A program made the position numbers and the translations under genes. From Promethearchaeota archaeon (GTDB taxonomy: Archaea > Asgardarchaeota > Lokiarchaeia > Sigyniarchaeales > SOKP01), in the NCBI GenBank assembly GCA_016926735.1, contig JAFGOA010000058.1, forward strand, positions 1 to 30,037: a stretch of DNA of 30,037 nt, read 5' to 3'. The stretch's first letter is position 1; every line of letters starts with the position of its first letter. Under the pieces are notes generated by a model. The model worked only from the letters and a program-made list of their open reading frames with translations, made no database searches and had not been told where the DNA came from. This document shows positions 10,427-30,037 of the stretch, in pieces.

Positions 10427-10461
10427 CAAAATAATCTTATTTATTATTTTATAGATTCTAA

Positions 10462-11241: not shown

Positions 11242-11344
11242 TTCAATTATTTTACCAAATTAGTTAAAAATGAAAGTCATAAGAAACATTTATTCTTATT
11301 GTAATATTTATTTAAATCAAAAAAAATCTCATGTGATAATAATA

Positions 11345-16659: not shown

Positions 16660-16816
16660 AAATTTCCTTTTTTTTTTCATTTTTTCTTCATATTTGAAGT
16701 TAAATTAAAGATAGAGACAATATTTTTTTAGGAGAAGACAGTTTTTAATGTTAATATTAATTTCAGTTCAATTAATATTACATATATTATATTGAATAAA
16801 TTTATTTCTATGATGA

Positions 16817-17355
16817 TTATCCTTCACAAGTTAAATATTTTTCATAATTAGATAACTTCTTAATTACATTATTTAACAGCCTCAATTCTTTTAGAGAACG
16901 AGTTAGAACAGATTCAGACTCTTGAAAGGTACTTTAAAACGCATTACATACTACTTTTTCTTTTATTATGAACCAAAAATGTTCAATCTCACATAGATCA
17001 GGAGAATACGGTGGAAGATAAATCAGTTTTAATTTATCTCGAACTTTATGTAAAAAATTCTTTAAAGTTTTAGCTCGATAAGCAGGAGCATTATCGGTAA
17101 TGGCATATATCATTCCAGATCCAGAATATTTTCTCATAAGATAATGCAAGAATATTTTATAGGCTCTCGCATTTAATAAATTAATAAATATAAAAGTATT
17201 GGTATGGTTTCTGAGATTTATGGCTCCTAAAACGTGCTTCCTTTTTTTAAACCAATTTATCCGCAAGATAGGACGACTTCTCTTCTTCGCTAACATTTTT
17301 TTCGGGATGCCGTTGAGATAAAAAGAGCTTTCATGCTGAAATAAAATAATTTTTC
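16817..17355 (-). mobile_element. IS630-family transposase remnant (DDE domain only, pseudogene)
   Basis: In frame upstream of the track ORF: KIILFQHESSFYL (first catalytic D appears as H). Then ITDNAPAY and LPPYSPDLCEIEHFW. In-frame TAA at 16934-16936 with the frame continuing to 16817. HTH part missing. Confidence 0.88.
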
Positions 17356-18324
17356 CTATTTTTTTTTTTTAATTACGAAATCTAAAATTATTCTAATTAG
17401 TAGTATTCCAATTAAAATTACATTTAGTATAATAAAATATGGAATATACCAATTTAAAAAGAAAAGAAACGGATCTACCTCTAAATCAAAATATATTTCA
17501 AAATAAGGTGTATAAATTAATTCATTGTTCCATTCCCATTTATAATTTCTATAAGTATCTTCTTCTTCAATTGTATAATTATAGGGATTTCCCGTTTTAG
17601 GATAATTTCCATAGACCTGATATGTAAACGACCCTGTAGAATTTATAGAATCATAGTCAGGATTTGTATATAAGTCATAATAAATAAAATAAACATCTAG
17701 ATAAACTACAGTAAAATCACTTGATTGAAGATTGAAACATAATGTAATATTGTTATTATTAGGAATTGTCATATTACATACTATTGCAGTATAATTGTCA
17801 TAATTCCGATTATAACAATTATATATATAATTATTAGGTTCTGTAGTATAAATAACATCACTATAATTATATGGGATTTTCTGATCATCTATTTTCAACG
17901 TAATGTTATAATTTTTTCCAAAGAAACTTGGAAAAGGAGAAATTAGCATAATAGTTTTATTTTCAGAATTAAAATTATGAATTGTATAATTTGCTTCGAT
18001 ATAATAATCTATAACATTAAATATATTAGAAGTATCCATATTAAACAAAATATTTGTGTTTATGATGGAGATATTTGAATAATTGTTATAAATAAAAGGT
18101 TGACCCGAACCAGGATTCTGGTCCGCTAAAGCATCAGTAAACCCCTCCATCATACTAGCAAAATAAAATGGAATAGCAATAAAATTAGTAATTATTAAAT
18201 ATATAACTACTTGTTTAAAGAATCTTATTTTGTCAAATGATTTAGTATTTATCACTTTAGTTCCACAATAAATACAAAAAACATAAGTTTTTTCTAAATA
18301 ATTCTAACATTTTGGACATTTCAT
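17356..18324 (-). pseudogene. Zn-ribbon + TM + Asn/Tyr-rich extracellular domain + C-terminal TM protein, with in-frame TAG at codon 7
   Basis: From ATG 18324: MKCPKC*NYLEKTYVFCIYCGTKV, in frame with the track ORF (GTG 18255). The downstream 299 aa are intact and could be translated from the GTG. Confidence 0.7.
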
Positions 18325-18618
18325 AACTGATTTACCATTTTCTTTATTAAAATTTATATGAAAAAATAAAAAGAAATTTAAATTTATAAATTTTTTGTTA
18401 TTTTTTTAATAAAAAAAATTAGCATATAGAATTAATCTAAATTTCAATATTTTCTAAATTCAAAGCTTTCTGCAATAAATAGAAGAATTTTTCTCTAATT
18501 TATGCTCTAAAATAAGGAAATTTTACTCTTTTTTAGGTTATTTGATTGAATATTATTATAGAAATATTTGTCAGTAAATTTTATTATATTATTATCGTGA
18601 TATTAGAAGATATAAGAT

Positions 18619-18646
18619 TAATCGTGAAAGGACAGTTTTGCTAAGC
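18619..18646 (+). repeat. dif-like 11-6-11 site B
   Basis: TAATCGTGAAA-GGACAG-TTTTGCTAAGC. Confidence 0.7.
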
Positions 18647-18810
18647 GCACTCTAATGAATGATAACAGCCATATCATTAAGAAAGAGAAAGAGAATTAAT
18701 TAAGAAAAGAGATTTTAACACTTTGAATGAATTATCAACTAATTATTAAATAAAAAAAGCTTTTAATCTTTACAATCCGATGATAAATTATTATTAAGAT
18801 AATAGTAATA

Positions 18811-18838
18811 ATATCGTGAATTAACTGTTTTGCAAAAT
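18811..18838 (+). repeat. dif-like 11-6-11 site C
   Basis: ATATCGTGAAT-TAACTG-TTTTGCAAAAT. Confidence 0.75.
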
Positions 18839-18918
18839 TCTTTTTCACTTATATAGATTGGAATTTCTCTCTCATATCTATTGATCTACATTAAAAATAA
18901 AAAAATTTATATATTTTA

Positions 18919-18969
18919 ATGACTACTAGTCATATAATAACCTATGGTAATTCTATGACTTATAGTCAT
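18919..18969. promoter_or_regulatory. Two palindromic operators (probable TetR sites)
   Basis: ATGACT-act-AGTCAT (18919-18933) and ATGACT-tat-AGTCAT (18955-18969), right after AAAAATTTATATA (BRE/TATA-like, 18901-18913). Confidence 0.78.
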
Positions 18970-18995
18970 TATTTTTAATAAAAGGTGTAATTTAA

Positions 18996-19832
18996 ATGAA
19001 AACTGAAATCTATTATTTTTCTGGAACTGGTAATTCATTATACTTAGCTAAACAATTACAGAGTCTCCTCCCTGAAATAAATCTAATACCTATTGCAAAA
19101 ATATTAAGATTTAATTATATCGAGACAAAAGGAGAGAATATTGGATTTATATTTCCTTGTCATGGTTTAACTATACCAATACCAGTAAGAAAGTTGTTAA
19201 AAAGAATAAATATTAAAGCTTCCAAGTATTTTTTTGCGATTGTAACTCGGGGAGGATCTATTTTTAGAGGCTTTCCTAAAATTAATAAACTTTTAAAAAA
19301 ACAAGGTAAAAAACTAAATGCATCATTTGTTATAACTATGGGGCTCAATGATCCAAAATTAAAGGCATTTAAAGTTCCAAATAAGAGAGAATTAAAAGCT
19401 ATAGAAATAAATGTCCAAGAAAAGTTAAGACTAATTGAAAACGTTATAAATCATCAAAAGAATTATCATGATGATAATAGTGGAGTTCGATTTTCCAAAT
19501 TTTCTATAGTTAATCTTATAATGGAACGATTAATTCCTTTTGCAGTACATTATATTGCTCCAAAAGTAAAACAATATTTCTATATAGATTCAAAATGTAT
19601 GAGTTGTGGAATTTGTGAGAAAGTTTGTCCATCACAAAAAATTATCATGAAGAATAATCAACCCATATGGCAGAGTATAGTCAATTGTTATTATTGCTAT
19701 GCTTGTTTAAATTATTGTCCTACAGAATCAATTCAAATATACTCACAATTTTATATGAAATCTTATACACCTGAAAGAGGGAGATATCCACATCCTTATG
19801 CTAATGTAAAAGAGATTTCAAACCAAAAGTAA
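18996..19832 (+). CDS. EFR1-family flavodoxin/ferredoxin fusion
   Basis: IYYFSGTGNS, IGFIFP. Two 4Fe-4S motifs CMSCGICEKVCP and CYYCYACLNYCP. C-terminal RYxHP. Confidence 0.92.
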   Translation: MKTEIYYFSGTGNSLYLAKQLQSLLPEINLIPIAKILRFNYIETKGENIGFIFPCHGLTIPIPVRKLLKRINIKASKYFFAIVTRGGSIFRGFPKINKLLKKQGKKLNASFVITMGLNDPKLKAFKVPNKRELKAIEINVQEKLRLIENVINHQKNYHDDNSGVRFSKFSIVNLIMERLIPFAVHYIAPKVKQYFYIDSKCMSCGICEKVCPSQKIIMKNNQPIWQSIVNCYYCYACLNYCPTESIQIYSQFYMKSYTPERGRYPHPYANVKEISNQK

Positions 19833-19875
19833 TCATCAATGTTATTAAATAAACTGAAAAATCATACTAAAAAAG

Positions 19876-20556
19876 GTGAAATATATTTCTAAAATACCAA
19901 GAAGAGAACGTGAAAAATTAAAACGTCATAATGATATCCTTGAGGCTGCAAAAAAAAGATTCTTTGAAAAAGAGTATGATAAGGTATCAATGGATGTTAT
20001 TGCTAAAGATATAGAGCTTTCTAAATCAACACTTTATTTATACTTTAAAAATAAACAATCTCTTTACTTTGCTGTAGTATTAAAAGGAATGATTATTTTA
20101 CGGGATATGTTTAAAAAAGCTATAAAGAGTAAACATACAGGAATAGAAAAGCTTTTAGGTATAGCCAAAGCATCTTTTAATTATATGCAAATACACCCAG
20201 ACTACTATCGTCTTAATATTTCAGCGAGAAATCCTCGTTTTACAAAATTCCTTGATAAGGATAATAATGAACAGAGTATGATTGAATATGCAGAAAAATA
20301 TATTGAACTTATAAAAGAATTACTTGATTTTCTATTAGAAGCTGTAAACTTAGGAATTAAAGATGGTACGATTAAAAAGGAATCAAATCCTTTGCAAACA
20401 GCAATGTTTTTGGGTTCTGCTATTGAAACAATAGTATATTTATCTCCAGAAAACCAACTACTCCTAGATATGTATAGTATATCCCCAAAAGAATATTTCC
20501 ATCACTCGATTAACCTATTATTAAAGGGAATAAGCGGAGATAAATCTAAAAATTAA
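19876..20556 (+). CDS. TetR/AcrR-family regulator
   Basis: RREREK...ILEAAKKRFFEKEYDKVSMDVIAKDIELSKSTLYLYFKNK. Confidence 0.93.
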   Translation: MKYISKIPRREREKLKRHNDILEAAKKRFFEKEYDKVSMDVIAKDIELSKSTLYLYFKNKQSLYFAVVLKGMIILRDMFKKAIKSKHTGIEKLLGIAKASFNYMQIHPDYYRLNISARNPRFTKFLDKDNNEQSMIEYAEKYIELIKELLDFLLEAVNLGIKDGTIKKESNPLQTAMFLGSAIETIVYLSPENQLLLDMYSISPKEYFHHSINLLLKGISGDKSKN

Positions 20557-20573
20557 ATATGGACACCTATAAT

Positions 20574-20601
20574 TTATCATGAAACAGTTATAACTGTTAG
20601 A
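20574..20601 (-). repeat. dif-like site D (spacer inverted)
   Basis: TTATCATGAAA-CAGTTA-TAACTGTTAGA. CAGTTA is the reverse complement of TAACTG. Left arm matches B/C, right arm is divergent. Confidence 0.55.
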
Positions 20602-20839
20602 ATATAAAATATTAAATCAAATTTATTTTACCCTCAGAACAAAAACTATAAACAGAAAATTTGATAAAAAAAATTCTTAATTGATAAACTCTAAGTCCTA
20701 TTTTCATGAAAATTCCTTTGAAAAAATGAAAGAAAATAAAATAATAAAATATCCAAAAAATATAGGAAAATTAAATTTAAAATTAAAGAAGAATGGATTT
20801 TATGATTAATTTAATAGTTATAAATAATTTATTAAGCAT

Positions 20840-21118
20840 ATGAAAACAATTATAATTGATGGATCTAACATTGACAGTATTGATAAGTTGTATAATAAAC
20901 TATAATTATCATTAGATTTACCTAACTATTTTGGAAACAATTTAGATGCATTATGGGATTGTATAACAGGTTATATTGAACTTCCAATTAGAATAAAATG
21001 GATAAACTTCGATAAAATAGCAAATTCACTTGGTAATGAGTTTATAAATAAATTGATAGAATTATTCTCAGAAGCAGAAGATGAATTAGTTAAATTAATT
21101 CAAGTGGAATATGATTGA
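20840..21118 (+). pseudogene. Barstar (barnase inhibitor) family gene with premature TAA; absent from the ORF track
   Basis: MKTIIIDGSNIDSIDKLYNKL*LSLDLPNYFGNNLDALWDCITGYIELPIRIKWINF... carries the barstar signature (F/Y)GxNLDALWDC. Stop at 20903-20905. Confidence 0.92.
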
Positions 21119-21269
21119 TTTGTGGCAAAACATTAAAAAATTAGATGCATTTTTAATTGAAAAAAGGATAAATGAAGGAAAGATTATTATTGAAAATATA
21201 AAAAATACAACAGAATTGATCTTTTAATATAAAATTGTATTTTTAGACCTTTATTTAATGATTTAGTGA

Positions 21270-21362
21270 TATTCCGATTAAGAAAAAAACTTTTTTCATG
21301 GAAAAAATAATATTTTTAATGGAAAATGGGTGCAAAATAACTGTTTTGCAAAACTCATTTTA
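21270..21362 (+). repeat. About 90-bp repeat: accessory boxes + dif-like site E
   Basis: TTTTTCATGGAAAAA...TTTTTAATGGAAAA, then TGGGTGCAAAA-TAACTG-TTTTGCAAAAC (21327-21354). Close direct repeat of 22525-22615. Confidence 0.85.
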
Positions 21363-21606
21363 CAGAGTTATCTCTGTTATCTTATTAAAGAGTTAGAAAA
21401 GAAAAATAATAATAGAGGTTTTTTGATAAGATAATGGGCCTTCCGACGTATAATTAACCAATATAAAAACGATTGACTTCAATTTGTAAGATTTATAAAT
21501 AGTATACTTTATAAAGGAAATTTTTTATTTAAATATTTTAAAAAAAGGATAATAGACCAAAAGAAAGAAAGTTTTAAAGCTTATAATGGAATATAATTAA
21601 TTTTGA

Positions 21607-22176
21607 TTACTTTTTTTTTAATTTAAACAAATCAAAATACATTTTAATAGTATTTTTATCAATTTTCTCATTAGAAGATAATTTCTTTAATATAATCCTT
21701 CCAAGAGGCTTATCAACAAAATCAAATCCCATATTTAAATAAAATTTTATTGTCTCATGATTAGTTAAGGAATCAACAAAGACACATCTACATCCTATAA
21801 CTTTAGATACAGATAAAGCAATACTTACAGCTTTTTTGATTAAATCTGAACCAAATCCTTTCCTACGAAATCTTTTATCTATAGCAAACATACCAAGTAA
21901 AATACCTGGGATATATCTCGTTATTTTTTCTAAGAATAATGAATCATCCCATTGAATAGTTGAACTTGAAAGGGTAAAATATCCTATAATATTAGATTTA
22001 TTCAATTCTTCCAAAATATACATTTGAGAATATCCATATTTCATAAATATTGAAGCATATTTATATAAGAATTCATCCAATTCTTTAAATCCAGAACCAA
22101 ATTCATAATTCTGGAAAGTAAAAGTATCATCTATCTTTTTAAAGACAGGATTTATTTCTCTCATTAGTAAAATCAA
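21607..22176 (-). CDS. GNAT acetyltransferase toxin (AtaT/TacT-like)
   Basis: FGSG..ELDEFL, IIGYFTLS, IPGILLGMFAID, RRKGFG, GCRCVFVDS, FYLNMGF match the tRNA-acetylating toxin subfamily pattern. Confidence 0.8.
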   Translation of the reverse strand: MILLMREINPVFKKIDDTFTFQNYEFGSGFKELDEFLYKYASIFMKYGYSQMYILEELNKSNIIGYFTLSSSTIQWDDSLFLEKITRYIPGILLGMFAIDKRFRRKGFGSDLIKKAVSIALSVSKVIGCRCVFVDSLTNHETIKFYLNMGFDFVDKPLGRIILKKLSSNEKIDKNTIKMYFDLFKLKKK

Positions 22177-22183
22177 GTAAAAA

Positions 22184-22402
22184 TTATTCTTTTGTGAGAT
22201 CTGTTATTTCATTTTTTAATTCTGAATAAAAACTAGCTAATTTTTCATCATATTCTACATTTTCCAAATCATTCAATAAATCTTCTACAGCTTCTTTAGA
22301 TTTAAGGACGAGATCATCATTTGTAGATATAATATAGAAATCTTCTGGTTCATGAACCTCTTCAAATTTTCTAACTTCCTCTTCAGTTTTCATAATTTTC
22401 AC
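22184..22402 (-). CDS. Putative antitoxin (acidic, DUF1778-C-terminus-like)
   Basis: Small acidic ORF 7 nt upstream of the GNAT gene. LVLKSKEAVEDLLNDLEN...EKL recalls the toxin-binding tail of AtaR/TacA. Confidence 0.55.
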   Translation of the reverse strand: MKIMKTEEEVRKFEEVHEPEDFYIISTNDDLVLKSKEAVEDLLNDLENVEYDEKLASFYSELKNEITDLTKE

Positions 22403-22524
22403 TTTATATTTTTCATCTTAACATTAAATAAATACTAAAAAAAGTATTAAAAACTTCCTTTTTTTTATTTTATATAAATTATTTTAAACTTAAATTTTTA
22501 AACCTTTAACGAATAAATTAATAT

Positions 22525-22617
22525 TATTCAGATTTAGAAAAATTCTTTTCCATGGAAAAAAATAAATTTTTAATGGAAAATGGATGCAAAATAACTGTTT
22601 TGCAAAACACTTTTTCC
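22525..22617 (+). repeat. About 90-bp repeat: accessory boxes + dif-like site F
   Basis: TTTTCCATGGAAAA...TTTTTAATGGAAAA, then TGGATGCAAAA-TAACTG-TTTTGCAAAAC (22581-22608). Confidence 0.85.
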
Positions 22618-22953
22618 TAAGCGTTTTCCCATCTCTCATCAAGCTCTGAGAAGCATAAGAATATAGTAGGATTAGTTATTATAATATCATTATCTCTGCA
22701 TTATAAATAAAAGATATAAAGTTATTTGACTTATAATTTCAAGATATAATAGAAGAAAAATTAAATATAATTAAGAAATTTTTATTTTTATGAAATGTAA
22801 TATCTTAATTTGTAAACTTTGTGTTTGATTTTTATTAAGATTTAGTAGAAAAAAATATCTTTCAATCCATTATATAATTTCTTTCAAATTACATAATAGT
22901 TTTAAATATTCAAGACTTCTAAACTATATAATAAAAAGAGAGAGTTAATAATT

Positions 22954-23955
22954 ATGCGTTATAATCCCATTCCTTTTTTGAAGCAAACAACATACCCTTG
23001 GATTATATATAATCTTTATAAAAATATCTTAACCAAATCTAAAGATGAGGATGTACTATTAAAAATTAAGAAAGCAATGATAAATAGTGAACTCATCCAA
23101 GAATCAATTAATATTGCTAATATGTGGGAAGAATCTATTTTAAAACGACATAATGATGCAACTCATCCAATACATTATCTTGAGATTATTACAGAATTTG
23201 GATTGAATCAGAATGATCCTGGTGTTTCAAACATATGTCAGTTAATCTTTGCACACCAAACCAATGATGGAGCCTTTCAAACTAAAATATTAGTACCAAA
23301 GCAATTTAAAGGGAGTGGTGAAGCAAGTTGGGATTGGATGACTTGTGATATTCCAATTTTAATTTATTTCCTTAGTACTATGGGGTTTCAAGATGATTTA
23401 CGTGTTAAAAAAGCAATTAAACATTTAGTAGGATTAATTCAGGATAATGGATTGAGGTGCATTAGTTCGATTCCAAAATTTAGAGGTCCAGGAAGAAAGG
23501 AAGATCATTGTCCTTATGCAAATCTTTTAGCTTTGAAAGCATTAGCAAACGTTTTGGATAGTAAATATATTCAGGATGCATGTAGTAATACCATTCAAGC
23601 ACAACTTGATTTCTGGAAAAATCGTACAGAACGAAAAATTTACTTATTTGGTATTGGAACTGACTTTAAAAAATTAAAATATCCGAATATCTATTATAAC
23701 ATTGTTCATGTTCTTGATGTTCTCAGTTTATTTAAAGAAGCACGAGAATCTAATTATTTTCAAGAAATGTTAACTATTGTAAATAATAAGCAAAATGAGG
23801 ATGGAAGTTTTATTGCAGAATCAGTATGGCGTGCATTCAAAAATTATGATTTTGGTCAGAAAAAATATTCTTCTCCAACATTAACATATAAAATTACTGA
23901 AATTAATAATAGATGCAATAATCTTGATAATGAATGGATCTTAGACAACATATAA
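22954..23955 (+). CDS. Prenyltransferase/squalene-cyclase-repeat (alpha/alpha barrel) protein
   Basis: QTNDGAF and QNEDGSF QW-like repeats, DLRVKKA, FKKLKYP..YYNIVHVLDVL. Function unknown. Confidence 0.7.
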   Translation: MRYNPIPFLKQTTYPWIIYNLYKNILTKSKDEDVLLKIKKAMINSELIQESINIANMWEESILKRHNDATHPIHYLEIITEFGLNQNDPGVSNICQLIFAHQTNDGAFQTKILVPKQFKGSGEASWDWMTCDIPILIYFLSTMGFQDDLRVKKAIKHLVGLIQDNGLRCISSIPKFRGPGRKEDHCPYANLLALKALANVLDSKYIQDACSNTIQAQLDFWKNRTERKIYLFGIGTDFKKLKYPNIYYNIVHVLDVLSLFKEARESNYFQEMLTIVNNKQNEDGSFIAESVWRAFKNYDFGQKKYSSPTLTYKITEINNRCNNLDNEWILDNI

Positions 23956-23968
23956 GTATAATTATTTT

Positions 23969-24042
23969 GAAAATTCTTTTTTTCCATGGAAAAAGTGACT
24001 ATTTTAATGGAAAACTAAAGTGAAAGGACAGTTTCACGAATA
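23969..24042 (+). repeat. Accessory boxes + dif-like site G
   Basis: TTTTCCATGGAAAA...TTTTAATGGAAAA, then CTAAAGTGAAA-GGACAG-TTTCACGAATA (24015-24042). GTGAAA/TTTCAC is a perfect inverted repeat around the 6-bp spacer. Confidence 0.8.
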
Positions 24043-24069
24043 AAATAAAAAAGAATTTTTAATTTATGA

Positions 24070-24927
24070 TTATAATAAATCAGACATCATATTAAACCAT
24101 TCAGCTAATTCTTGAGCAGATTCAATGTATCCTCCCATTATTGCTGTTGCAAGGAGTTTAAGTCTTTCATGTTTAATTCCTATTTTTATAGTCCAAATTA
24201 TAATAACAAGTGAGATAATAATTGATAATATGGCAGCTAATATTGAGTAAAAAGATATAGGAATCATCATCAATATGAATGATGGAACGAGTATTAAATC
24301 TAAGAAATGAACTATAAAAAGAATTAACATACGTTTTAATGTTTTTCTATTATAACATATTGTTCTTGCGGCTTCAACAAATTTAACTATTTGTTTTTGG
24401 CTCTCTGTTATCGGTTCTTCTTTAAAAATAATTCCATTACCATATATAGGAATTCCACGAATAATACCTCCTGATTGTAATTCATATTTCATTTTTTGAT
24501 GATTTATTATTTTCACCATTTTTTTTTGGATTTCTTTATATCGATTTCTCTTTTGACTTTCATATTCCCATAATTCATTCATTTTAAAATAAGCAATTAA
24601 TTTCTTCTTAATAGGAATATATTGAAGGTTAAAAAACTCAATATTTTTTTTAAAGGTTGCTATAGCTTCCTTGTCAGAGAGCTTAGCTTTTATTATTTCA
24701 TATTTCACTGGTTCTATTAGACTAAAGAAAAAGAAAAATAACCTTGTTACAAATATTAGACCGATTATAGAAGTTAATAAATAATATAGATCTCTTGTTT
24801 CATCTATACCTAAATCCATTGGGGGGTATTTCATAAATTGAATAATAATTATGATTAATATAGGTAAAGAAAAGATACATTGTACTAGTAGATATATTAA
24901 TATGTTTCGCTTTAATTTATTTTTCAA
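24070..24927 (-). CDS. Hypothetical four-TM membrane protein
   Basis: Long ORF with two TM pairs flanking a soluble basic region. Confidence 0.7.
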   Translation of the reverse strand: MKNKLKRNILIYLLVQCIFSLPILIIIIIQFMKYPPMDLGIDETRDLYYLLTSIIGLIFVTRLFFFFFSLIEPVKYEIIKAKLSDKEAIATFKKNIEFFNLQYIPIKKKLIAYFKMNELWEYESQKRNRYKEIQKKMVKIINHQKMKYELQSGGIIRGIPIYGNGIIFKEEPITESQKQIVKFVEAARTICYNRKTLKRMLILFIVHFLDLILVPSFILMMIPISFYSILAAILSIIISLVIIIWTIKIGIKHERLKLLATAIMGGYIESAQELAEWFNMMSDLL

Positions 24928-25145
24928 ATCAATTTTTATTATAATACACCATTTTCTTTTATTATTTGATACTATATGTCTTACACGTATTTAAAGGTTT
25001 GAGGTACTCTTTTCGAACTTTTTTTTTGTTTAAACTAGTGAATAAAATATTATCAGAAACTTTATCTTGTAAATCACCTTTTCCTTTATACAATAAAGTA
25101 AGTTGACGACTATGAGGAATATTCTCTTAATTTTAGGGAGTTTAA

Positions 25146-25165
25146 TAAATTCACCATCTTCTATA
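25146..25165 (+). repeat. 20-bp direct repeat, copy 1
   Basis: TAAATTCACCATCTTCTATA, identical at 25761-25780. Confidence 0.8.
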
Positions 25166-25186
25166 ACCCCCAATAAATACTTATAT

Positions 25187-25627
25187 TTAATTTAAATTAA
25201 CCAACCAATGATATTCATAACGGGTAGTAAATTTTACAATTAAAGAATTACACTTAGGACATAAACCAGTATATTGATAAATAGGCATATGACCTCTTCC
25301 GATAATATCAAAATAACCACGAATATTTTTTCTTCTATATTTTAGTTCATTGTCATACCATATTTTTTTGCATTTTAAACAAACACATAAAAATCGAAAA
25401 AGAGGATCATATTTATCTTCAAGTAACTCTTCAATTTCTATATTATATTCATTAGAATAAGAGTCTGTATTAATAAACTTAGTCATATGTTTAATAGAAT
25501 CTCTTGTTCTTAGAGGAGCATAAAGATTATATTTTGAGTTATATTTATATTTGCCAGATTCTAAATTCTCCATTGTTTTTGGATGATCATCTAAAGTAAG
25601 AATAGGCATTTTATTAAGACTCTTCAT
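25187..25627 (-). CDS. Hypothetical Zn-finger protein
   Basis: CVCLKC...CPKC. No family recognised. Confidence 0.65.
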   Translation of the reverse strand: MKSLNKMPILTLDDHPKTMENLESGKYKYNSKYNLYAPLRTRDSIKHMTKFINTDSYSNEYNIEIEELLEDKYDPLFRFLCVCLKCKKIWYDNELKYRRKNIRGYFDIIGRGHMPIYQYTGLCPKCNSLIVKFTTRYEYHWLVNLN

Positions 25628-25760
25628 TTTTAGAACTTTTGATAATTTTAAATCACTAAAAAAAAAATATTCAATTTTTCTTTTTTTTTTATATTCTTCA
25701 TATAATTAAAAAACAAACAATCCTATTGATAAATTTTATTTTTTTAAAAACATTCATTAG

Positions 25761-25780
25761 TAAATTCACCATCTTCTATA
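25761..25780 (+). repeat. 20-bp direct repeat, copy 2
   Basis: TAAATTCACCATCTTCTATA. A 13-bp inverted match also lies at 28547-28559. Confidence 0.8.
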
Positions 25781-25982
25781 GTCCCTAATTCTTCTCCTTA
25801 TATGAAACGAACGATATTTATGAAATAATCATACTTTTCATTAAAAATCTTTTTTTGTATATATCAATCAATTTTAAATTTGATTGATATTAACATTACT
25901 ATCTAAAAACATTAGTAGAGGATCAATAATGTAGGTAATTTCTTAGAGATTTCGAAAATCCTTCTTAAAATTTTTTTATATT

Positions 25983-26462
25983 TTATTTATTTTCCTTTCC
26001 GGGTTTATAATTAACTTTAGGGATTTCAAAATTAGTAAGGTCTATTAGATAATTAATTAACTTACTGTAATGTTTATTTACCTCTGGGCGGGTTCTCTCT
26101 ATAATATGATATTTATTTTTATCATATACCTCAAATACTTTTTTAGTTCCATCCATTACAAGGAACCCGTCATTATTATCCTTAATTAAGTTCCAGAAAT
26201 CCATTTTCTCAATATAATTTCTAATCTCTTGGACTTCTTCCTTACTTATTGCTTTAGTAATCTCTTTTTTGGGTGCAATTCCTGCCGCTGAAGGATATAT
26301 AGCGGTTAGAGTATTCTCATTCTGTTTCACATCAATTCTTATAACTACAGGATCTTTGAATGTTCTGTTTATCGTCAATCTGTATGTTGTTAAGTCTGGC
26401 GATTTAAGATTATAAAGAGCGGAATCAAATGGATTTTTTGTAAAAGGTTTTTTTAAATTCAT
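25983..26462 (-). CDS. Hypothetical protein
   Basis: YRLT..RTFKDPVVIRI...DFWNL...DG...FE....YH...R..P recalls a bacterial uncharacterised family. Not confirmed. Confidence 0.65.
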   Translation of the reverse strand: MNLKKPFTKNPFDSALYNLKSPDLTTYRLTINRTFKDPVVIRIDVKQNENTLTAIYPSAAGIAPKKEITKAISKEEVQEIRNYIEKMDFWNLIKDNNDGFLVMDGTKKVFEVYDKNKYHIIERTRPEVNKHYSKLINYLIDLTNFEIPKVNYKPGKENK

Positions 26463-26618
26463 GCTACAATACAGATATTAGCATTTGTATAAAAATTTTT
26501 AGTTATTAAATTCTTTAATCTGGAATTCCTCTTTAAATAAAATTATAAGACTTTTCATAAACATTTTTCCATGTAGTAATGATATAATTCTGGATCTATT
26601 TGTGTTTATAATGATAAT

Positions 26619-26675
26619 ATTAAGGAAAAGAACAGTTACAATTTAATTTTCCATTAAAAATCTTTTTTTTTATAT
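26619..26675 (+). repeat. Degenerate dif-like site H with accessory box on the right side
   Basis: ATTAAGGAAAA-GAACAG-TTACAATTTAA, immediately followed by TTTTCCATTAAAAA (reverse complement of the proximal box). Confidence 0.6.
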
Positions 26676-26821
26676 AATAGACACTTTAAAAAATAAAAAT
26701 AGGATTTAAGAATTTATGGAAATTATTGATATCTAATCATATAACTTATAAATTAAAATTATAAATGAAAAATTGGATCAAATAATTATTAGATTAGTCA
26801 TTCTAGTATAAATGATTATAT

Positions 26822-28540
26822 ATGATTCGGACTCTTATCATTGATGGTATTACAAGCGTTTTATCAAGACATAGGATGGAACAAGTAAAAGATATTTTTA
26901 GAAGTAGTTTTCCATCTTTAGCCTATCTTGCTGATGAAATACCCTTAAAACTAAAAAACCCTATTCGGGAAGGTTATTTGTCTAAATTACTTATATTAGA
27001 AAAAAAACAAAATTTAGTTTTAGGTTTTGCTTTTATAATCCATTTTCCATCTATATATGCTAGTTTTTTAGACTTTTTCGCAGTTCATTCTAAGCAAAGA
27101 GGATTAGGGATTGGAGGATCATTATATGAATCTGTACAGGAGCATTGTCGTCAGATGGGCAGTCAAGCGTTATATATAGATGTTAGTCCAGATGATCCAA
27201 CATTAACAAAGAATGAAAGGGAATGTATTCAAAATCAAAAACGAATTCGTTTCTATGAACGTTATGGTTGCCGAGTTGTAATAAATAAGGAGTATTCTAA
27301 GCCGGTAGGTAATCCTCCAACATATGCTTATCTTATGATCGATCCACTTAATAATGAGGATTTCCCAGACATTACAAATATTAAAAGTGCTCTTTCGCGT
27401 ATATTTCTCCTTCGCTTTTCGCGTTCTGTAACACCAGAATACATTACTAATGTCTTAGAATCCATAACAGAGGAAGGATTTAGACTCCGTCCTATAATAA
27501 AAAAGCGAAAAAGAAAATTAATAAACATTAAAGTAGGAAAATTTCAGGAAAAATTTGCTTTAATATATAACCTGCAACATAAAATCCATCATTTACATGA
27601 CAAAGGATATTTAGAGAGTCCTATCCGTGTACAAGCTATTATGGATGCTTTAGAAGGTTCTCCATTATTTAATATAGTCCGAGTAAAAAAAATCCCTGAT
27701 ACTATTATATCTGAATTACATAGCCCAGATTTAATTCAATATCTTAAAATAGTCTGCAGTCAGCTAAATGAAAATAATATATTTTATCCTGATACTTTTC
27801 CCATAAGAAGGAGCAGTCAGAAACCAAAGAATTTAGCAATACAAGCTGGTTATTATTGTTTGGATGATGGTACACCACTTTATAAAGGTGCTTTTATTGC
27901 TGCTAAGGCAGCACTTAATACAGCGCTAACTGGAGCAGATGAGATCCTTTCGGGTAAAAAAGTTGTATATGCGGTTTGCCGACCCCCAGGTCATCATGCG
28001 GGAATAAACTTTTTTGGAGGATTTTGTTATTTTAATAATGCTGCTGCTGCTGCGCACTTCCTTAGCGAACATCACAAAGTTGCAATTCTTGATTTAGATT
28101 TTCACCATGGGAACGGCACTCAAGATATATTTTATCATAGGTCAGATATCCTTACGCTATCTATCCATGGGGATCCAAATTATTCTTATCCTTATTTTAG
28201 CGGTTTCATAGATGAGATTGGTGAAGGTGAAGGTAAGGGTTTTAATCAAAATTACCCACTCCCTCCTGATACAAATGATTCCACCTATTTAAAAACGTTA
28301 GAAATAGCACTCACAAGAATAAAAGAATTTCGGACTGAAATTCTAATTGTTTCACTTGGTTATGATATTCTTAAAGGAGATCCTACGGGTAATTTCAATA
28401 TTAGTTTTAGAGGTATGTCCCACATTGCTTTAAAATTGAGAGAATTAAATATACCAATACTTCTTATTCAAGAGGGGGGATATCATATGAATAACATAAG
28501 ACGAGGTTGTGAAGCTTTCTTCTTGGGTCTTATAAATTAA
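26822..28540 (+). CDS. GNAT acetyltransferase fused to HDAC/acetylpolyamine amidohydrolase domain
   Basis: N-terminal LDFFAV..QRGLGIGG...RFYERYG. C-terminal ESPIR, RPPGHHA, GGFCYFNN, LDLDFHHGNGTQ, SLGYD..KGDP, QEGGY. Confidence 0.93.
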   Translation: MIRTLIIDGITSVLSRHRMEQVKDIFRSSFPSLAYLADEIPLKLKNPIREGYLSKLLILEKKQNLVLGFAFIIHFPSIYASFLDFFAVHSKQRGLGIGGSLYESVQEHCRQMGSQALYIDVSPDDPTLTKNERECIQNQKRIRFYERYGCRVVINKEYSKPVGNPPTYAYLMIDPLNNEDFPDITNIKSALSRIFLLRFSRSVTPEYITNVLESITEEGFRLRPIIKKRKRKLINIKVGKFQEKFALIYNLQHKIHHLHDKGYLESPIRVQAIMDALEGSPLFNIVRVKKIPDTIISELHSPDLIQYLKIVCSQLNENNIFYPDTFPIRRSSQKPKNLAIQAGYYCLDDGTPLYKGAFIAAKAALNTALTGADEILSGKKVVYAVCRPPGHHAGINFFGGFCYFNNAAAAAHFLSEHHKVAILDLDFHHGNGTQDIFYHRSDILTLSIHGDPNYSYPYFSGFIDEIGEGEGKGFNQNYPLPPDTNDSTYLKTLEIALTRIKEFRTEILIVSLGYDILKGDPTGNFNISFRGMSHIALKLRELNIPILLIQEGGYHMNNIRRGCEAFFLGLIN

Positions 28541-28585
28541 GATAATAGATGGTGAATTTTTAAAGTTAGATTGATTATTTTAATA

Positions 28586-28636
28586 TTGATTAAATAGGAC
28601 AGATTCATTCCTAAAGTCCCTTAAAAACCTTTTTTT
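28586..28636 (+). repeat. Highly degenerate dif-like site J
   Basis: TTGATTAAATA-GGACAG-ATTCATTCCTA, then AAGTCCCTTAAAAACCTTTTTT at the same offset as the box at site H. Confidence 0.4.
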
Positions 28637-28848
28637 AATTTTAATATAAAAATTTTTTATCTTTAAGTTAATTATCAGAAAAATGTAGTTAAAGAAATAT
28701 TTTATTTTAGGGAATATAAGTTTAATTCTCGTTAGTTTAAATCTACTTCTTTTATTCATATTTGACCATAAGAAAAGCTATACTCTCCATAGAATATGTC
28801 TTAATTTCTTTTAAGCACTAAGTTCTCTGTTCCCCTAAATAAGACTAT

Positions 28849-29595
28849 TTACATTTTTCTAAACACATAAATTGCCCACCCAAGTACGTCTCGTTCCCAT
28901 TTTAAATATAAGGTCTTCTCTTTATTTAATTTGATTAACATCTCAGGAAGGTCAGGATCTTCTGGATGTGCTTGAGCATACTTGTCCATTGCATACCATT
29001 GGAGCCCAAGATATCTGTCCCACTCGTCATGAGTGCTCACGAAAGTGTATAGTATTTTTAGACCTAGATTTTCTCCAATTTGCACATTCTCAGCGTGATT
29101 GCTAAACATTTCATATTTTATTTCTGAGAGATCGAAATACTCTTTTGGGGGATTGCTGATCCAAAAGGGTTCTCCCACCACGACGAGTCCGTTGCGCTTG
29201 GTTTGGCTCATCAAATATTTAAGGGTACCCTCATGTCCATTATAAATCCAACTGGCACCTAAACAAGATGTGAGATCAAAGCTCTCCAGTGTATTAGGCA
29301 TATAATTGGCGCCGTCCATTTTAATTAATGTTAAATCGGCATTCGGAACATACTCTTTCGCTTTTCTTTTAGCATCAGCGAGGTGGTAAGGTGATTGATC
29401 AACGCCTATTGCGGAAACATTGTACTTTTCGACGAGCCGAATTAGAAATTCTCCTTTACCAGTGGCGATATCTAATACTTTTGAACCGGGTTTTAACTCC
29501 AAGAGAGTAATAAGCTCATTTAATTTTTCAATGCTCATAGGATTGCACACGAGGTGCTCCTTGTGTGTCTCATTATAATATTTCCAAACTTCCAT
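28849..29595 (-). CDS. Class I SAM-dependent methyltransferase
   Basis: VLDIATGKGE motif I, GVDQS, FDLTSCLGASW, GLVVVGEPFW. Visibly more GC-rich than its neighbours. Confidence 0.92.
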   Translation of the reverse strand: MEVWKYYNETHKEHLVCNPMSIEKLNELITLLELKPGSKVLDIATGKGEFLIRLVEKYNVSAIGVDQSPYHLADAKRKAKEYVPNADLTLIKMDGANYMPNTLESFDLTSCLGASWIYNGHEGTLKYLMSQTKRNGLVVVGEPFWISNPPKEYFDLSEIKYEMFSNHAENVQIGENLGLKILYTFVSTHDEWDRYLGLQWYAMDKYAQAHPEDPDLPEMLIKLNKEKTLYLKWERDVLGWAIYVFRKM

Positions 29596-29743
29596 AGTTA
29601 TTAGTTTTATAAATATATTAGATACCTATTCAAGTTATTTAATTTTTTCATCAACTATATATAAAAAAAATAATAAATCAATTAAAATAAAAATCTTTAA
29701 TTAATTATCAAAAATTAAAAGTGATTTAAATAAGGTAAAAATT

Positions 29744-29935
29744 ATGGAAAAAAGTATAAAAAAAAAGCGAACAAAAGTCATGTATAGATGGATATCACAA
29801 ATTTTTAATCCAATTTTGATGAAAAATGGCTTAAAGAATTATATTTGGTATTTAAAAGATTTAAAAAAATATGCTAAAATGGAAGGAGCAGAAAATATAG
29901 AATTTATTAATACACAACCTTGTATTTCATGGTGA
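29744..29935 (+). pseudogene. 5' fragment of a gene (DUF268/methyltransferase-like N-terminus) cut off by an insertion
   Basis: WYLKDLKKY..MEGAE.I.F..T.PC recalls DUF268-type N-termini, which continue PCLHD. The TGA stop comes from the inserted GTGAACTAC sequence. Confidence 0.45.
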
Positions 29936-30037
29936 ACTACCACGTCCGAAACAGTACTTCGTAATTATGTGATATTCATCCGAAATCATCTTTATCTTGA
30001 ATTTTCTGGATGATGGATGGATATCCAAAACTTGAAA
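29932..30037 (-). mobile_element. Probable IS200/IS605-family right end (runs off the window)
   Basis: Minus strand reads ...GAAG-TACTGT-TTCGG-ACGTGG-TAGTTCAC, the typical GAAG-hairpin-TAGTTCAC right-end layout with an imperfect hairpin. An open frame ending ...CFGRGSSP* runs through it. Confidence 0.6.

Follow-up and report, generated by a model that had tools for sequence, protein, structure and literature searches.

Converging arrays of accessory cassettes with composite junction sites in a Promethearchaeota genome

We describe here two converging arrays of accessory cassettes in a 30,037-nt stretch of DNA from a Promethearchaeota archaeon (assembly GCA_016926735.1, contig JAFGOA010000058.1; hereafter the window). 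The plus-oriented array runs from site B to site G, and the minus-oriented array comprises site J, site H and a decayed copy near 25830. The arrays were probably built from integrated cassettes by conservative site-specific recombination at a short core, and the same family of junction sites recurs at other loci of this genome and its close relatives.

A sequence-only reading of this DNA described the sites as 28 nt long with 11-6-11 symmetry. Those 28 nt make up just the core; the composite junction as a whole is asymmetric, 130 to 400 nt long and furnished with accessory boxes. From left to right, the junction consists of L1, an inverted-repeat core and R1. L1 is a pair of ATGGAAAA boxes spaced about 21 nt, often preceded by about 60 to 90 nt of conserved DNA, and R1 is a conserved tail of 70 to 270 nt. 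The core is an inverted repeat of the form 7-6-7 (TGCAAAA-TAACTG-TTTTGCA or GTGAAA-N6-TTTCAC), with a left arm of 7 nt, a spacer of 5 to 6 nt and a right arm of 7 nt. The symmetry had been overstated: the paired portion of each arm is 7 nt, and of 11 arm positions D has just 3 that are symmetric, whereas B, C, E, F and G have 5 to 7. The positions and letters reported for B (18619), C (18811), E (21327), F (22581) and G (24015) are correct, and these sites are intergenic. As repeated sites, E, F and G belong fully to the family, B and C have the core and tail, and D, H and J appear decayed. The features of the window are as follows.

18256-18624, plus strand: fixed left boundary of the plus array, a flank of unique sequence with the left arm TAATCGTGAAA at its end
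18619-18710, plus strand: site B, with left arm, spacer GGACAG, right arm TTTTGCT and R1 tail, without ATGGAAAA boxes
18711-18846, plus strand: remainder of a short ORF-less cassette and site C (core 18811-18838, spacer TAACTG)
18847-20573, plus strand: cassette with an EFR1-family ferredoxin gene (18996-19832) and a TetR regulator gene (19876-20556)
20574-20601, plus strand: site D, plausibly a decayed junction, TTATCATGAAA...TAACTG
20840-21115, plus strand: gene for a barstar-like protein, interrupted in frame by a TAA at 20903-20905
21213-21546, plus strand: composite site E, with upstream conserved stretch, boxes (21284-21327), core (21331-21350, TGCAAAA-TAACTG-TTTTGCA) and R1 tail
21607-22402, minus strand: GNAT cassette, with a GNAT acetyltransferase gene (21607-22176) and a 72-aa ORF (22184-22402)
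22477-22854, plus strand: composite site F, with boxes (22538-22581), core (22585-22604) and an R1 tail conserved over about 270 nt
22954-23955, plus strand: cassette encoding a 333-aa protein of no known family
23972-24042, plus strand: site G, the final site of the plus array, with boxes and core GTGAAA-GGACAG-TTTCAC
24070-26462, minus strand: three ORFs of unknown function between the converging arrays (24070-24927, 25187-25627 and 25983-26462)
25816-25878, minus strand: decayed box module (repeat families D7 and I5)
26620-26680, minus strand: site H, decayed boxes and core; minus-strand positions 26647-26657 match TTAATGGAAAA exactly
26822-28540, plus strand: GNAT-histone deacetylase fusion gene (PF00850, E 4.3e-72; PF00583)
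28586-28728, minus strand: site J, a decayed junction with its upstream conserved stretch

The flank to the left of the plus array is 90 to 92% conserved in the related genome G003 (L021 6219-6578) as far as the B core. Site B was matched by the right-half HMM (18624-18710, E 1.2e-6) and is an attL-like junction that opens the array. Both B and C consist of core and right-hand tail only, with both ATGGAAAA boxes absent, and C is the junction where populations differ in cassette content. The cassette that follows C has an ortholog of 73% identity in G002 (L025), which bears TTCGTGAAATAACTG in D's position directly after the TetR gene; D, which the HMMs do not detect, is therefore plausibly a decayed site. 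Sites E, F and G were matched by nhmmer with E-values of 6.5e-31, 3e-36 and 4.3e-24, respectively, using a seed built from those same three. Site E resembles sites in L009, L013 and L028 over about 250 nt, and F was aligned with eight other copies. Site G sits between two convergent genes.

Family searches agree with the cargo labels EFR1 (NF038196, 185 bits), TetR (PF00440) and GNAT-histone deacetylase that had been proposed from the letters. The barstar label is likewise correct (PF01337, E 9.6e-16, on residues beyond the stop), for a gene that is broken by its in-frame TAA. No family match backs the labels "TA pair" and "barrel enzyme": the 72-aa ORF, next to the GNAT gene (PF13508/PF00583), has no family match, and the 333-aa protein has none in Pfam or NCBIfam. 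The 333-aa cassette with its junction halves is 98.3% identical in G001, where it has different neighbors on either side.

The three ORFs between the arrays match no Pfam family above threshold. Homology of 95% between the window and G003 (L022) begins at 25816. Positions 26646-26825 show 71 to 76% likeness to DNA running into sites of L030 and L008, and the GNAT-histone deacetylase fusion has a 75% relative in G001 (L024). Positions 28616-28728 are the reverse complement of C112 8223-8331 (80%) and 16815-16885 (87%), which lead into the boxes of two C112 sites. Given this likeness and the minus-strand TTAATGGAAAA of H, both H and J belong to a second, oppositely oriented array.

The nhmmer model seeded with E, F and G gave 28 matches in the genome, 25 of them beyond the seed sites at E<1. 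Half-site HMMs located 33 sites clustered on 14 contigs of the window's genome (G000), 83 sites on 43 loci of G001 to G003 and 43 sites on 16 metagenome contigs; these counts are not independent, since G001 to G003 and the metagenome contigs may partly come from the same populations. Given this clustering, the motif is not scattered at core-gene promoters. Nor is it the inverted end of an intact IS. The pattern ATGGAAAA-N8-14-TTTAATGGAAA has 17, 35, 6 and 18 matches in the four genomes of genus g1 and one match each in 3 of 37 relatives outside it, and a reversed-pattern control gave 0 in every genome. Among the genomes searched, the junction sites are restricted to g1.

All sites point in the same direction, as direct repeats, in 41 of the 44 records that hold at least two. 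Array starts consist of a unique non-box left flank, core and R1 (C38 5808, C85 18624, C125 19408, C159 5546, C161 6024, L017 8844 and L019 15827, for example), array interiors of L1-core-R1, and array ends of L1-core-other, including L1 and core with TATAAGGATAAAA at C161 4608, L011 5772, L001 4868, L009 1278 and L002 13507. This layout follows the attL, attP and attR logic of tandem integration. G000 has at least seven array starts, with arrays at several loci. The left and right halves of the junction are also found apart, with other partners, and the boxes are much more conserved than the DNA beside them. Non-box left flanks that are otherwise unrelated retain the left arm (A/T)TCGTGAAAT, a sign that this half-site may be under selection.

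Within the core, the spacer is tightly tied to the right arm and tail: TGGGGx occurs with TATCAC or TATTAC in 13 of 13 sites, and TAACTG is paired with TTTTGCA in 36 of 38. Left arms of the GTGAAA type are found with all spacer types. The arms of the core helix covary, with 86.6% of cells paired and changes on both sides in four of seven pairs; counted over both helices tested, two-sided changes number 45 cells, against an average of 21 after shuffling, and none of 500 shuffles reached 45. In 19 of 67 non-redundant sites the arms do not complement each other (GTGAAA with TTTTGCA), so a hairpin cannot be required in all.

The cargo is diverse and is typical of flexible gene pools, comprising toxin-antitoxin pairs, enzymes and whole operons. 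It includes PIN, ParE, HepT/MNT, AbiEii-like ATPases, methyltransferases, LRR proteins, a GH5 cellulase, a subtilase, an SNF2 helicase and the whole pst operon, and genes for IS630-like and IS4-like transposases also lie within arrays. Cargo orientation is near random, with 80 ORFs on the strand of the site and 66 opposite; for the first ORF past a site, the numbers are 33 and 41, respectively.

Populations differ by cassette, and the differing junctions lie in the core. Site C was compared with a sister genome and with contigs of three other metagenomes; its left flank is joined to three different cassettes or tails, always within AA(T/A)TAACTGTTTTGCAAAA. In G001 (L008), the window segment 18625-18846 (96.8% identity) is followed directly by 22589-24034 (98.3%), with the two alignments overlapping by 28 nt in the common core, so that 18847-22588 is missing there. 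Homology of L008 with the window extends from the B core to the G core (24034, inside the core), and the tail of B has a box module in front of it in G001. G003 (L021) keeps the flank to the left of B and has a different cassette behind the core, beginning with the tail that follows the last L008 site. Around GGACAG, all four pairings of two left sides and two tails were observed. Logan contigs join 18818 to 21335 (C to E) in X6, with 194 nt on the shorter side, and 18818 to 22589 (C to F) in X2 and X3, with 43 and 51 nt, respectively. G001, X2 and X3 lack the EFR1/TetR stretch between C and F, and X6 lacks it between C and E. Because C has at most about 20 to 28 nt in common with E and F, k-mer assembly should have been unable to make these joints without spanning reads. 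The sites thus split the cargo into cassettes, as had been proposed, and the module boundaries of relatives (L008, L021, X2, X3 and X6) coincide with them.

Alignments of the G000 array contigs with relatives' loci (at least 88% identity and at least 300 nt) have 56 internal ends. Eight are no more than 60 nt away from a core defined by HMM, a number that none of 2000 random replicates reached (mean, 1.08). Another nine fall 61 to 400 nt deep in the tail, where 6 of 2000 replicates gave at least as many (null mean, 3.1). The other 39 are elsewhere, some of them outside arrays, and some may fall at undetected decayed sites. At C161 site 2445, G001-like sequence and G003-like sequence switch about 145 nt past the core, at a conserved AT-rich motif, in what looks like homologous recombination. 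All of the evidence comes from assemblies and contigs, in which no circular cassettes or excision junctions were seen.

The explanation that we consider best, and judge rather probable, is that the window holds two converging arrays of cassettes integrated at the core. Each cassette would carry half of a complex directional site at each end, R1 at the 5′ end and L1 at the 3′ end, and the halves of neighboring cassettes would meet at the core, with crossover at or beside the boundary of left arm and spacer. We infer a circular intermediate, a strand-exchange chemistry, a role for the boxes and an enzyme. A circular cassette bearing an attP-like L1-core-R1 would insert itself at a core, either elsewhere in the chromosome or within an array already present, giving flank-core-R1 (attL-like) at the start, L1-core-R1 between cassettes and L1-core-other (attR-like) at the end. 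Recombination of two direct sites would delete a cassette, and the boxes would serve as protein sites of an accessory or arm type.

No gene for the enzyme lies next to the arrays: none of those examined has a recombinase in or beside it. XerA, on contig C228, is the sole tyrosine recombinase found in the genome (NF040815, 240 bits; cut-off, 220), which is rated 99% complete. The genome also has three serine recombinases and 17 TnpB-type matches, all on site-free contigs, and its search returned neither a Y1 HUH transposase nor an IS110 DEDD enzyme. Neither XerA, present in 40 of 41 relatives searched, most of them without the sites, nor the serine recombinases, present in 12 of 23 genera, track the site distribution, and XerA therefore cannot be the only determinant. 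Host XerA is a tentative first candidate, and an unrecognized or unbinned recombinase would be at least as likely.

In its specific form, the sequence-only reading takes the sites to be dif-like Xer sites and the cargo to be dif modules that the XerA of the host, acting alone, would capture and shuffle, on the pattern of Acinetobacter pdif. This is a special case of the cassette explanation and takes up a minor share of its probability; we consider it improbable. XerA as sole tyrosine recombinase in a nearly complete genome, the arm-spacer-arm layout and the 6-nt spacer speak for it, as do E and F, which score 14/22 and 13/22 against the arm positions of Escherichia coli dif quoted in that reading, not of archaeal dif (0.05% and 0.2% of window 28-mers score as high). 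However, B and C reach 11/22 (2.8%) and D and G 7/22 (49%, that is, chance), so dif likeness is weak and does not characterize the family, and arm symmetry spans 7 nt rather than 11. In Acinetobacter pdif modules, flanking sites are oppositely oriented, whereas the sites here are direct repeats, and arrays stand at several loci, with at least seven starts in G000, as opposed to one chromosomal dif. Since XerA is widespread and arrays were found in g1 only, something beyond XerA must be needed. The archaeal dif sequence itself appears in PMC2958812 in figures only. Neither an integron integrase nor attC-type features were found here. The sequence-only reading knew of no such array in Asgard archaea; PMC9668308 reports an enrichment of integrons and attC clusters in Asgard genomes, but the sites described here lack IntI and attC features.

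Some exchanges occur at the tail end and not at the core, which keeps ordinary homologous recombination between the repeats in play as a rival: the composite element could be a dispersed intergenic repeat with a different main role (as promoter, insulator, cluster of protein-binding sites or small RNA gene, for instance) and shuffling its by-product. We regard this as unlikely. It would accommodate the 9 of 56 breakpoints at the far tail end, the BRE/TATA-like motifs there (AAAGATATAAA and TTAAGATTTATAAA, which may be read as archaeal promoters), box conservation far above that of neighboring DNA and the lack of a dedicated recombinase in genome searches; the varied combination of left with right modules also recalls bacterial BIME/REP mosaics. 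Yet the flanks joined by exchange at B and C have only about 18 to 28 nt in common with their partners, and these exchanges recur at the same place, joining C to three tails and the B flank to two, and unrelated flanks keep the left arm. Co-orientation in 41 of 44 records despite near-random cargo means that a promoter for downstream genes is no explanation, and G lies between convergent genes. RNAalifold gave no consensus structure for 67 tails, and Rfam had no match at E up to 1. Repeated insertion of a non-autonomous transposable element (MITE-like or IS-derived) into intergenic DNA of a variable region, leaving ends or remnants, would fit the dozens of copies in one genus among the genomes searched, many of them decayed or partial, and the transposase genes inside arrays. 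It is highly improbable, as synteny breaks mid-element, between boxes and tail, rather than at the ends, no terminal inverted repeats or target duplications were seen around units, and copies are co-oriented within arrays. The transposase genes are cargo inside cassettes, not bounded by the sites, and the HUH and IS110 enzymes that would suit hairpin-type ends are absent.

That related genomes exchange cassettes at these junctions argues for a gene-capture system, not described before, within a single archaeal genus.

The window's genome (G000) is a metagenome bin of 3.88 Mb in 238 contigs, with 26% G+C and a rated completeness of 99%; the window itself spans all 30,037 nt of contig C85. Sites B, C, E, F, and G were confirmed in the window to be intergenic and to carry the letters assigned to them in the sequence-only reading, which had taken them for 11-6-11 Xer/dif-like sites separating modules shuffled by a host XerA-like recombinase. 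The repeats are real and far beyond chance, but they were under-described as free-standing 28-mers: the unit repeated at E, F, and G is much longer, and the symmetric arms are only 7 nt, not 11. To the left of the core (arm-spacer-arm) lies a two-box module, L1, which at E, F, and G consists of TTTTTCCATGGAAAAA, about 10 nt, and ATTTTAATGGAAAAT, both being ATGGAAAA boxes. The core of these sites is an inverted repeat, TGCAAAA-TAACTG-TTTTGCA or GTGAAA-GGACAG-TTTCAC, and to its right runs a conserved tail, R1, which extends for 70 nt or more in nearly every copy, for about 170 to 190 nt in the majority, and for about 270 nt in the subfamily of F. Some copies also have 60 to 90 nt in common ahead of the boxes. 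Boxes, core, tail, and upstream stretch thus make up an asymmetric junction of 130 to 400 nt. The tail ends (e.g., window positions 22740-22775 and 21455-21500) in a conserved AT-rich block, AAAGATATAAA..TCAATTGA..TTAAGATTTATAAA, which has the look of an archaeal BRE/TATA promoter or of two such promoters; a number of synteny breakpoints lie directly past it.

The window holds two arrays, one of rightward sites (B, C, D, E, F, and G) and one of leftward sites (H, a decayed copy, and J), which converge between 24034 and about 25830. A further leftward site is present in the contig of G003 that continues beyond the window's right end (L023), G001 to G003 being three other genomes of the genus. 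Site D was missed by the hidden Markov models (HMMs), and the G002 ortholog of the same cassette has TTCGTGAAATAACTG at the D position.

Features in and beside the window arrays
16934-17296, minus strand, IS630-type DDE_3 transposase fragment of 120 aa, just outside the array; similar genes sit inside arrays of G003 (L011)
17356-18255, minus strand, 299-aa Zn-ribbon membrane protein with an in-frame stop, beside the array start
20840-21115, plus strand, barstar-like gene with an in-frame TAA at 20903-20905; the part past the stop matches PF01337 (E 9.6e-16)
21298-21326, 22552-22580, and 23986-24014, stretches that we take to resemble ORB origin repeats
25816-25878, leftward, decayed site
26620-26680, leftward, site H
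28586-28728, leftward, site J

Internal junctions have the form L1-core-R1, and their left and right halves are separable. At array starts, a foreign left side keeps only the left arm, (A/T)TCGTGAAAT, and is followed by core and R1 (window sites B and C; G000 contigs C38 at 5808, C125 at 19408, C159 at 5546, and C161 at 6024; L017 at 8844 and L019 at 15827 in other records); at least seven starts lie on different G000 contigs. Several array ends show L1 and core followed by TATAAGGATAAAA in place of R1 (C161 at 4608, L011 at 5772, L001 at 4868, L009 at 1278, and L002 at 13507). No empty target site (attB, a non-box flank joined directly to non-R1 DNA) was found among the junctions examined.

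A model built from E, F, and G gave 28 matches in G000 at E<1, and HMMs of the left and right half-sites located 33 sites on 14 G000 contigs. The pattern ATGGAAAA-N8-14-TTTAATGGAAA gave 17, 35, 6, and 18 matches in the genus's four genomes; among 37 further relatives the box pattern occurred once in each of three and in none of the rest, and a reversed-pattern control gave no matches in the genomes searched. Another 16 contigs with such arrays came from public metagenomes, none with a recombinase. The total is 159 sites in 73 records, which are not independent, as G001 to G003 and the metagenome contigs may overlap. All sites were co-oriented in 41 of the 44 records with two or more. A wider contig scan with the box pattern returned at least 120 stretches, with a single match in each of the 80 listed, and is uninformative on distribution; the matches listed include Promethearchaeota records L081 and L097, one of which has the coordinates of the single match in G020, a genome of the same family. 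Scans of viral contigs yielded no copy of the site. A repeat of about 145 nt at 4810-4958 of contig C112 (L037), present in at least seven copies at 92 to 98% identity in G003, probably represents a small mobile element that has no connection with the junction sites.

The sequence-only reading had proposed comparing module boundaries in relatives with the sites, and the two largely coincide, as seen in L008, L021, and contigs of three other metagenomes (X2, X3, and X6). In G001 (L008), window positions 18625-18846 (96.8% identity) are followed directly by 22589-24034 (98.3%), the two alignments overlapping in 28 nt common to C and F. This locus lacks 3.77 kb of the window, in which the genes for the EFR1 ferredoxin, TetR, and barstar lie together with site E and the GNAT pair; its homology to the window begins at the B core and ends at the G core, with other DNA beyond both. 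In G003 (L021), the flank left of B is kept at 90 to 92%, and past GGACAG comes the tail that follows the last L008 site. Two left sides and two tails are found around GGACAG, in all four combinations. Contigs of X6 join 18818 to 21335 (shorter side, 194 nt), and the X2 and X3 contigs join 18818 to 22589 (shorter sides, 43 and 51 nt). Taken with L008, these joints place three cassettes behind the left flank of C: its own in G000, that of E in X6, and that of F in G001, X2, and X3. Because C shares at most about 20 to 28 nt with E and F, we infer that the joints are not assembly chimeras. Most other metagenome joints were discounted as unreliable, since they lie in AT-rich DNA and their shorter side has only 20 to 24 nt. 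The C-type join is resolvable only to within AA(T/A)TAACTGTTTTGCAAAA, and the B-type join to within AAA-GGACAG-TTTTGCTAA. X2 and X3 also contain a backward joint from 24523, inside the open reading frame (ORF) at 24070-24927, to 22766, where the F tail ends; a single letter intervenes, and depth is low (2.4 to 3.8). This joint could represent another arrangement of the cassette encoding a 333-aa protein.

Breakpoints were counted in alignments (at least 88% identity and 300 nt) of the site-bearing G000 contigs to 55 loci of G001 to G003, which gave 35 alignments with 56 internal ends. Eight ends lay within 60 nt of an HMM-defined core, against a random mean of 1.08 (0 of 2,000 replicates reached 8), and nine lay 61 to 400 nt into the tail, against 3.1 (6 of 2,000 reached 9); three fell 61 to 400 nt upstream, and 36 were farther away. 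At the C161 site at 2445, G001-like sequence covers the core plus some 140 nt of the tail before G003-like sequence takes over, and four tail breakpoints lie directly past the conserved AT-rich tail-end motif. Taken together, the core and tail counts indicate that exchange concentrates in the junction element, though not in its core alone. Part of the exchange is probably due to homologous recombination between conserved blocks, which could in principle account for more of it. The corresponding rival explanation, in which the repeat has another role and is merely shuffled by homologous recombination, we consider unlikely. In 67 non-redundant sites, spacer TGGGGx occurs with right arm TATCAC or TATTAC in 13 of 13 cases and TAACTG with TTTTGCA in 36 of 38, and the GTGAAA-type left arm is found with all spacer types. 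A spacer tied to its right arm and tail, together with a left arm that accompanies every spacer, fits reassortment at the boundary between left arm and spacer.

The two arms are complementary beyond chance: the core helix is paired in 86.6% of cells, with changes on both sides in four of its seven pairs. Over both helices tested, 45 cells had both-side changes, where shuffling gave a mean of 21 and never reached 45 in 500 trials, and pairing was 76.7%, against at most 52% in slid controls; covariation is confined to the short core helix. In single-stranded DNA folds of E, F, and G, the core (a 7-bp stem) and the boxes form short hairpins of their own. Shuffled sequences fold as well as B and C do (z for the two sites, +0.35 and +0.58), and in 19 of the 67 non-redundant sites a GTGAAA left arm meets a mismatched TTTTGCA right arm; a hairpin is therefore probably not required. 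The idea of an RNA gene was rejected, as window positions 18000-30037 had no Rfam match at E up to 1 and RNAalifold found 0 consensus pairs in 67 tails. The boxes TTCCATGGAAA and AATGGAAAAT and the left arm AGTGAAAT, extended by GGGG in some copies, presumably recall the ORB origin repeats bound by archaeal Orc1/Cdc6. A crude k-mer repeat scan around the three G000 orc1/cdc6 genes showed nothing clear, and the site HMMs had no match on the contigs bearing those genes.

Consecutive co-oriented sites delimit 80 cassettes of 90 to 6,490 nt (median, about 2 kb), 6 of which lack an ORF of at least 80 aa. Cargo strand is near random, with 80 ORFs on the same strand as the site and 66 on the opposite one; for the first ORF after a site the numbers are 33 and 41. 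The window carries an EFR1 ferredoxin with TetR, the barstar gene, a GNAT gene with a small neighbor, the 333-aa protein without a known family, three ORFs of unknown function, and a GNAT-deacetylase fusion. No barnase-like partner was noticed near the barstar-like gene. Families in 99 scanned ORFs include PIN (4), HepT (3), ParE (3), Rce1-like proteins (3), AbiEii-like ATPases (3), DDE transposases, whose genes sit inside cassettes, and methyltransferases; further cargo comprises LRR proteins, a GH5 cellulase with dockerin, a beta-helix protein, a subtilase, an SNF2 helicase, and a phospholipid methyltransferase. On metagenome contig L192 (7547-13710), a complete pstS-pstCA-pstB-phoU set (PBP-like PstS, fused permease, ABC ATPase, and PhoU) occupies one cassette between two sites, so cassettes can be operon-sized. 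In an all-against-all blastp comparison of array ORFs, the largest cluster was a chain of multidomain surface proteins, and no protein family recurred at array ends.

No recombinase was found in or beside the arrays examined. The 299-aa ORF at the array start was rejected as a candidate, being a Zn-ribbon membrane protein with an in-frame stop. Read over 17356-18333 (minus strand), it starts with MKCPKC, meets the in-frame stop, and goes on as a Zn-ribbon, transmembrane, Asn/Tyr-rich protein of about 300 aa that matches no Pfam family; contig C222 encodes two paralogs, one of them at a distance of about 1.1 kb from a site. G000 was searched genome-wide with PF00589, PF01797, PF00239, PF01548, and PF07282. 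The sole tyrosine recombinase (PF00589) is XerA (NF040815, 240 bits against a cutoff of 220), encoded on contig C228; there, at about 10207-12470 (L048), xerA stands directly upstream of one of the three orc1/cdc6 genes. Three serine recombinases and 17 TnpB-type matches are all on contigs without sites, and G000 has no Y1 HUH or IS110 enzymes. XerA is present in 40 of the 41 relatives searched, most of them without sites, and serine recombinases in 12 of 23 genera, so neither explains arrays in this genus only; nor does the spread of PF00239 and PF00589 in the 41 genomes single out the genus. A weak integrase-like ORF in G002 (L205) was discarded, since tblastn gave no G000 relative and the ORF is not close to any site. 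As G000 is a metagenome bin, the enzyme could sit on an unbinned plasmid or virus.

The array behaves like that of an integron but does not qualify as one. As in integrons, promoter-independent cassettes stand in arrays, split by co-oriented recombination sites (41 of 44 multisite records); toxin-antitoxin genes and accessory enzymes abound in the cargo; and variation proceeds cassette by cassette, with presence or absence at C, B, and G differing between genomes. Integrons take up new cassettes at attI, the proximal site, and population differences here adjoin the array-proximal site C. The integron integrase is a tyrosine recombinase with an IntI-specific extra domain; in G000 there is no IntI, the sole tyrosine recombinase scoring 85.6 bits against a cutoff of 265 (TIGR02249). 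An attC site is a single long imperfect hairpin of about 57 to 141 nt with R''/L''/L'/R' boxes, R'' and R' being RYYYAAC and GTTRRRY, whereas the present sites fold into short hairpins in series, the stem having 7 bp, and inspection by eye revealed no RYYYAAC/GTTRRRY pair in them. Also unlike in integrons, each cassette begins and ends with conserved DNA, its genes lie in nearly random orientation, lengths of up to 6.5 kb leave room for operons, and each genome has several array loci. Integrons are reported in Asgard archaea, including integrase-less attC clusters (CALINs), and arrays without a neighboring integrase are common among integron/attC clusters too (excerpted text of PMC9668308).

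The Xer/dif label lacks support as stated, since the resemblance to dif is not common to the site family, the sites are direct repeats, and they occupy several loci. Compared with the E. coli dif arms as given in the sequence-only reading, E matches at 14 of 22 positions, F at 13, and B and C at 11, and D and G match at 7, which is chance. Acinetobacter pdif modules are bounded by oppositely oriented sites, so the parallel drawn with them is not borne out by the present sites, which are direct repeats rather than inverted pairs. Integrative mobile elements exploiting Xer (IMEX), such as CTX phage, integrate at a single chromosomal dif. The arrays share with pdif modules and IMEX units without a recombinase of their own, arm-spacer-arm sites with a 6-nt spacer (dif structure as in the excerpt of PMC2958812), a host XerA, and the prospect that repeated integration can yield tandem arrays. 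They differ from both in their large asymmetric junctions with box and tail modules and in that XerA is found in relatives without sites, and from IMEX in lying at several loci of one genome.

Among the systems compared, the logic of lambda att fits the junction types best. Lambda-type att is a complex site with a short core between different arms and with arm-type and accessory sites; here, too, a site of several hundred nucleotides has a short core between different arms and a short box in direct repeat on one arm, and flank-core-R1, L1-core-R1, and L1-core-other correspond to attL, an attP-like site, and attR. Unlike lambda, the units carry no integrase or excisionase and are single genes or operons, not phages or plasmids. 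BIME/REP elements are lineage-restricted, multicopy intergenic repeats of a palindromic unit with alternative flanking modules, and the junctions resemble them in each of these respects; we know of no BIMEs that delimit exchangeable cassettes or are co-oriented in arrays, and G000 has no RAYT-type (Y1) transposase. IS or MITE ends, which would bound a unit by terminal inverted repeats and come with target-site duplication and a matching transposase, are judged very unlikely because synteny breaks inside the repeat rather than at its ends, Y1 and IS110 enzymes are lacking, and the DDE genes lie inside cassettes. Aloposons are unrelated, being giant-gene elements integrated at tRNA genes (excerpt of PMC8813620). 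The excerpts of the review PMC8371274 contain nothing relevant on IMEX, integrons, cassettes, Asgard archaea, or hijacking, and no description of this site family was found in the literature searched, a limited collection without supplements.

The cassette-array reading is supported by natural recombinant junctions in several data sets. Site-specific recombination at the core is, in our estimate, somewhat better than evenly likely to be the process that builds the arrays. Circles carrying L1-core-R1 would integrate one after another at a core, and such serial integration would leave an attL-like start, attP-like internal junctions, and an attR-like end. XerA as the enzyme receives about a quarter of the likelihood that we give to site-specific recombination. 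More broadly, and leaning slightly against rather than for it, we suggest that one Asgard genus may run a gene-capture system of its own, independent of integrons, in which genes and operons would be taken up as circles with a 300- to 400-nt attP-like site (boxes, 7-6-7 core, and tail) and stacked in several directional arrays per genome, either by XerA redirected by a box-binding accessory factor or by an unrecognized kind of enzyme.

The site is well defined by its consensus, half-site HMMs, and natural recombinant junctions, which opens it to direct tests and gives a handle for finding the enzyme. Should XerA prove to be the enzyme, this would be, as far as we know, the first case in archaea of such wide exploitation of a chromosome-dimer resolvase; should it not, a new recombinase awaits discovery. 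The arrays mark a flexible gene pool that includes toxin-antitoxin pairs, surface LRR proteins, glycoside hydrolases, and a phosphate transporter. If the proposal is true, archaea would have a second route, besides integrons, for collecting and reshuffling accessory genes by the cassette, and would have it in the lineage most discussed as relatives of eukaryotes, in which mobile elements are poorly known.
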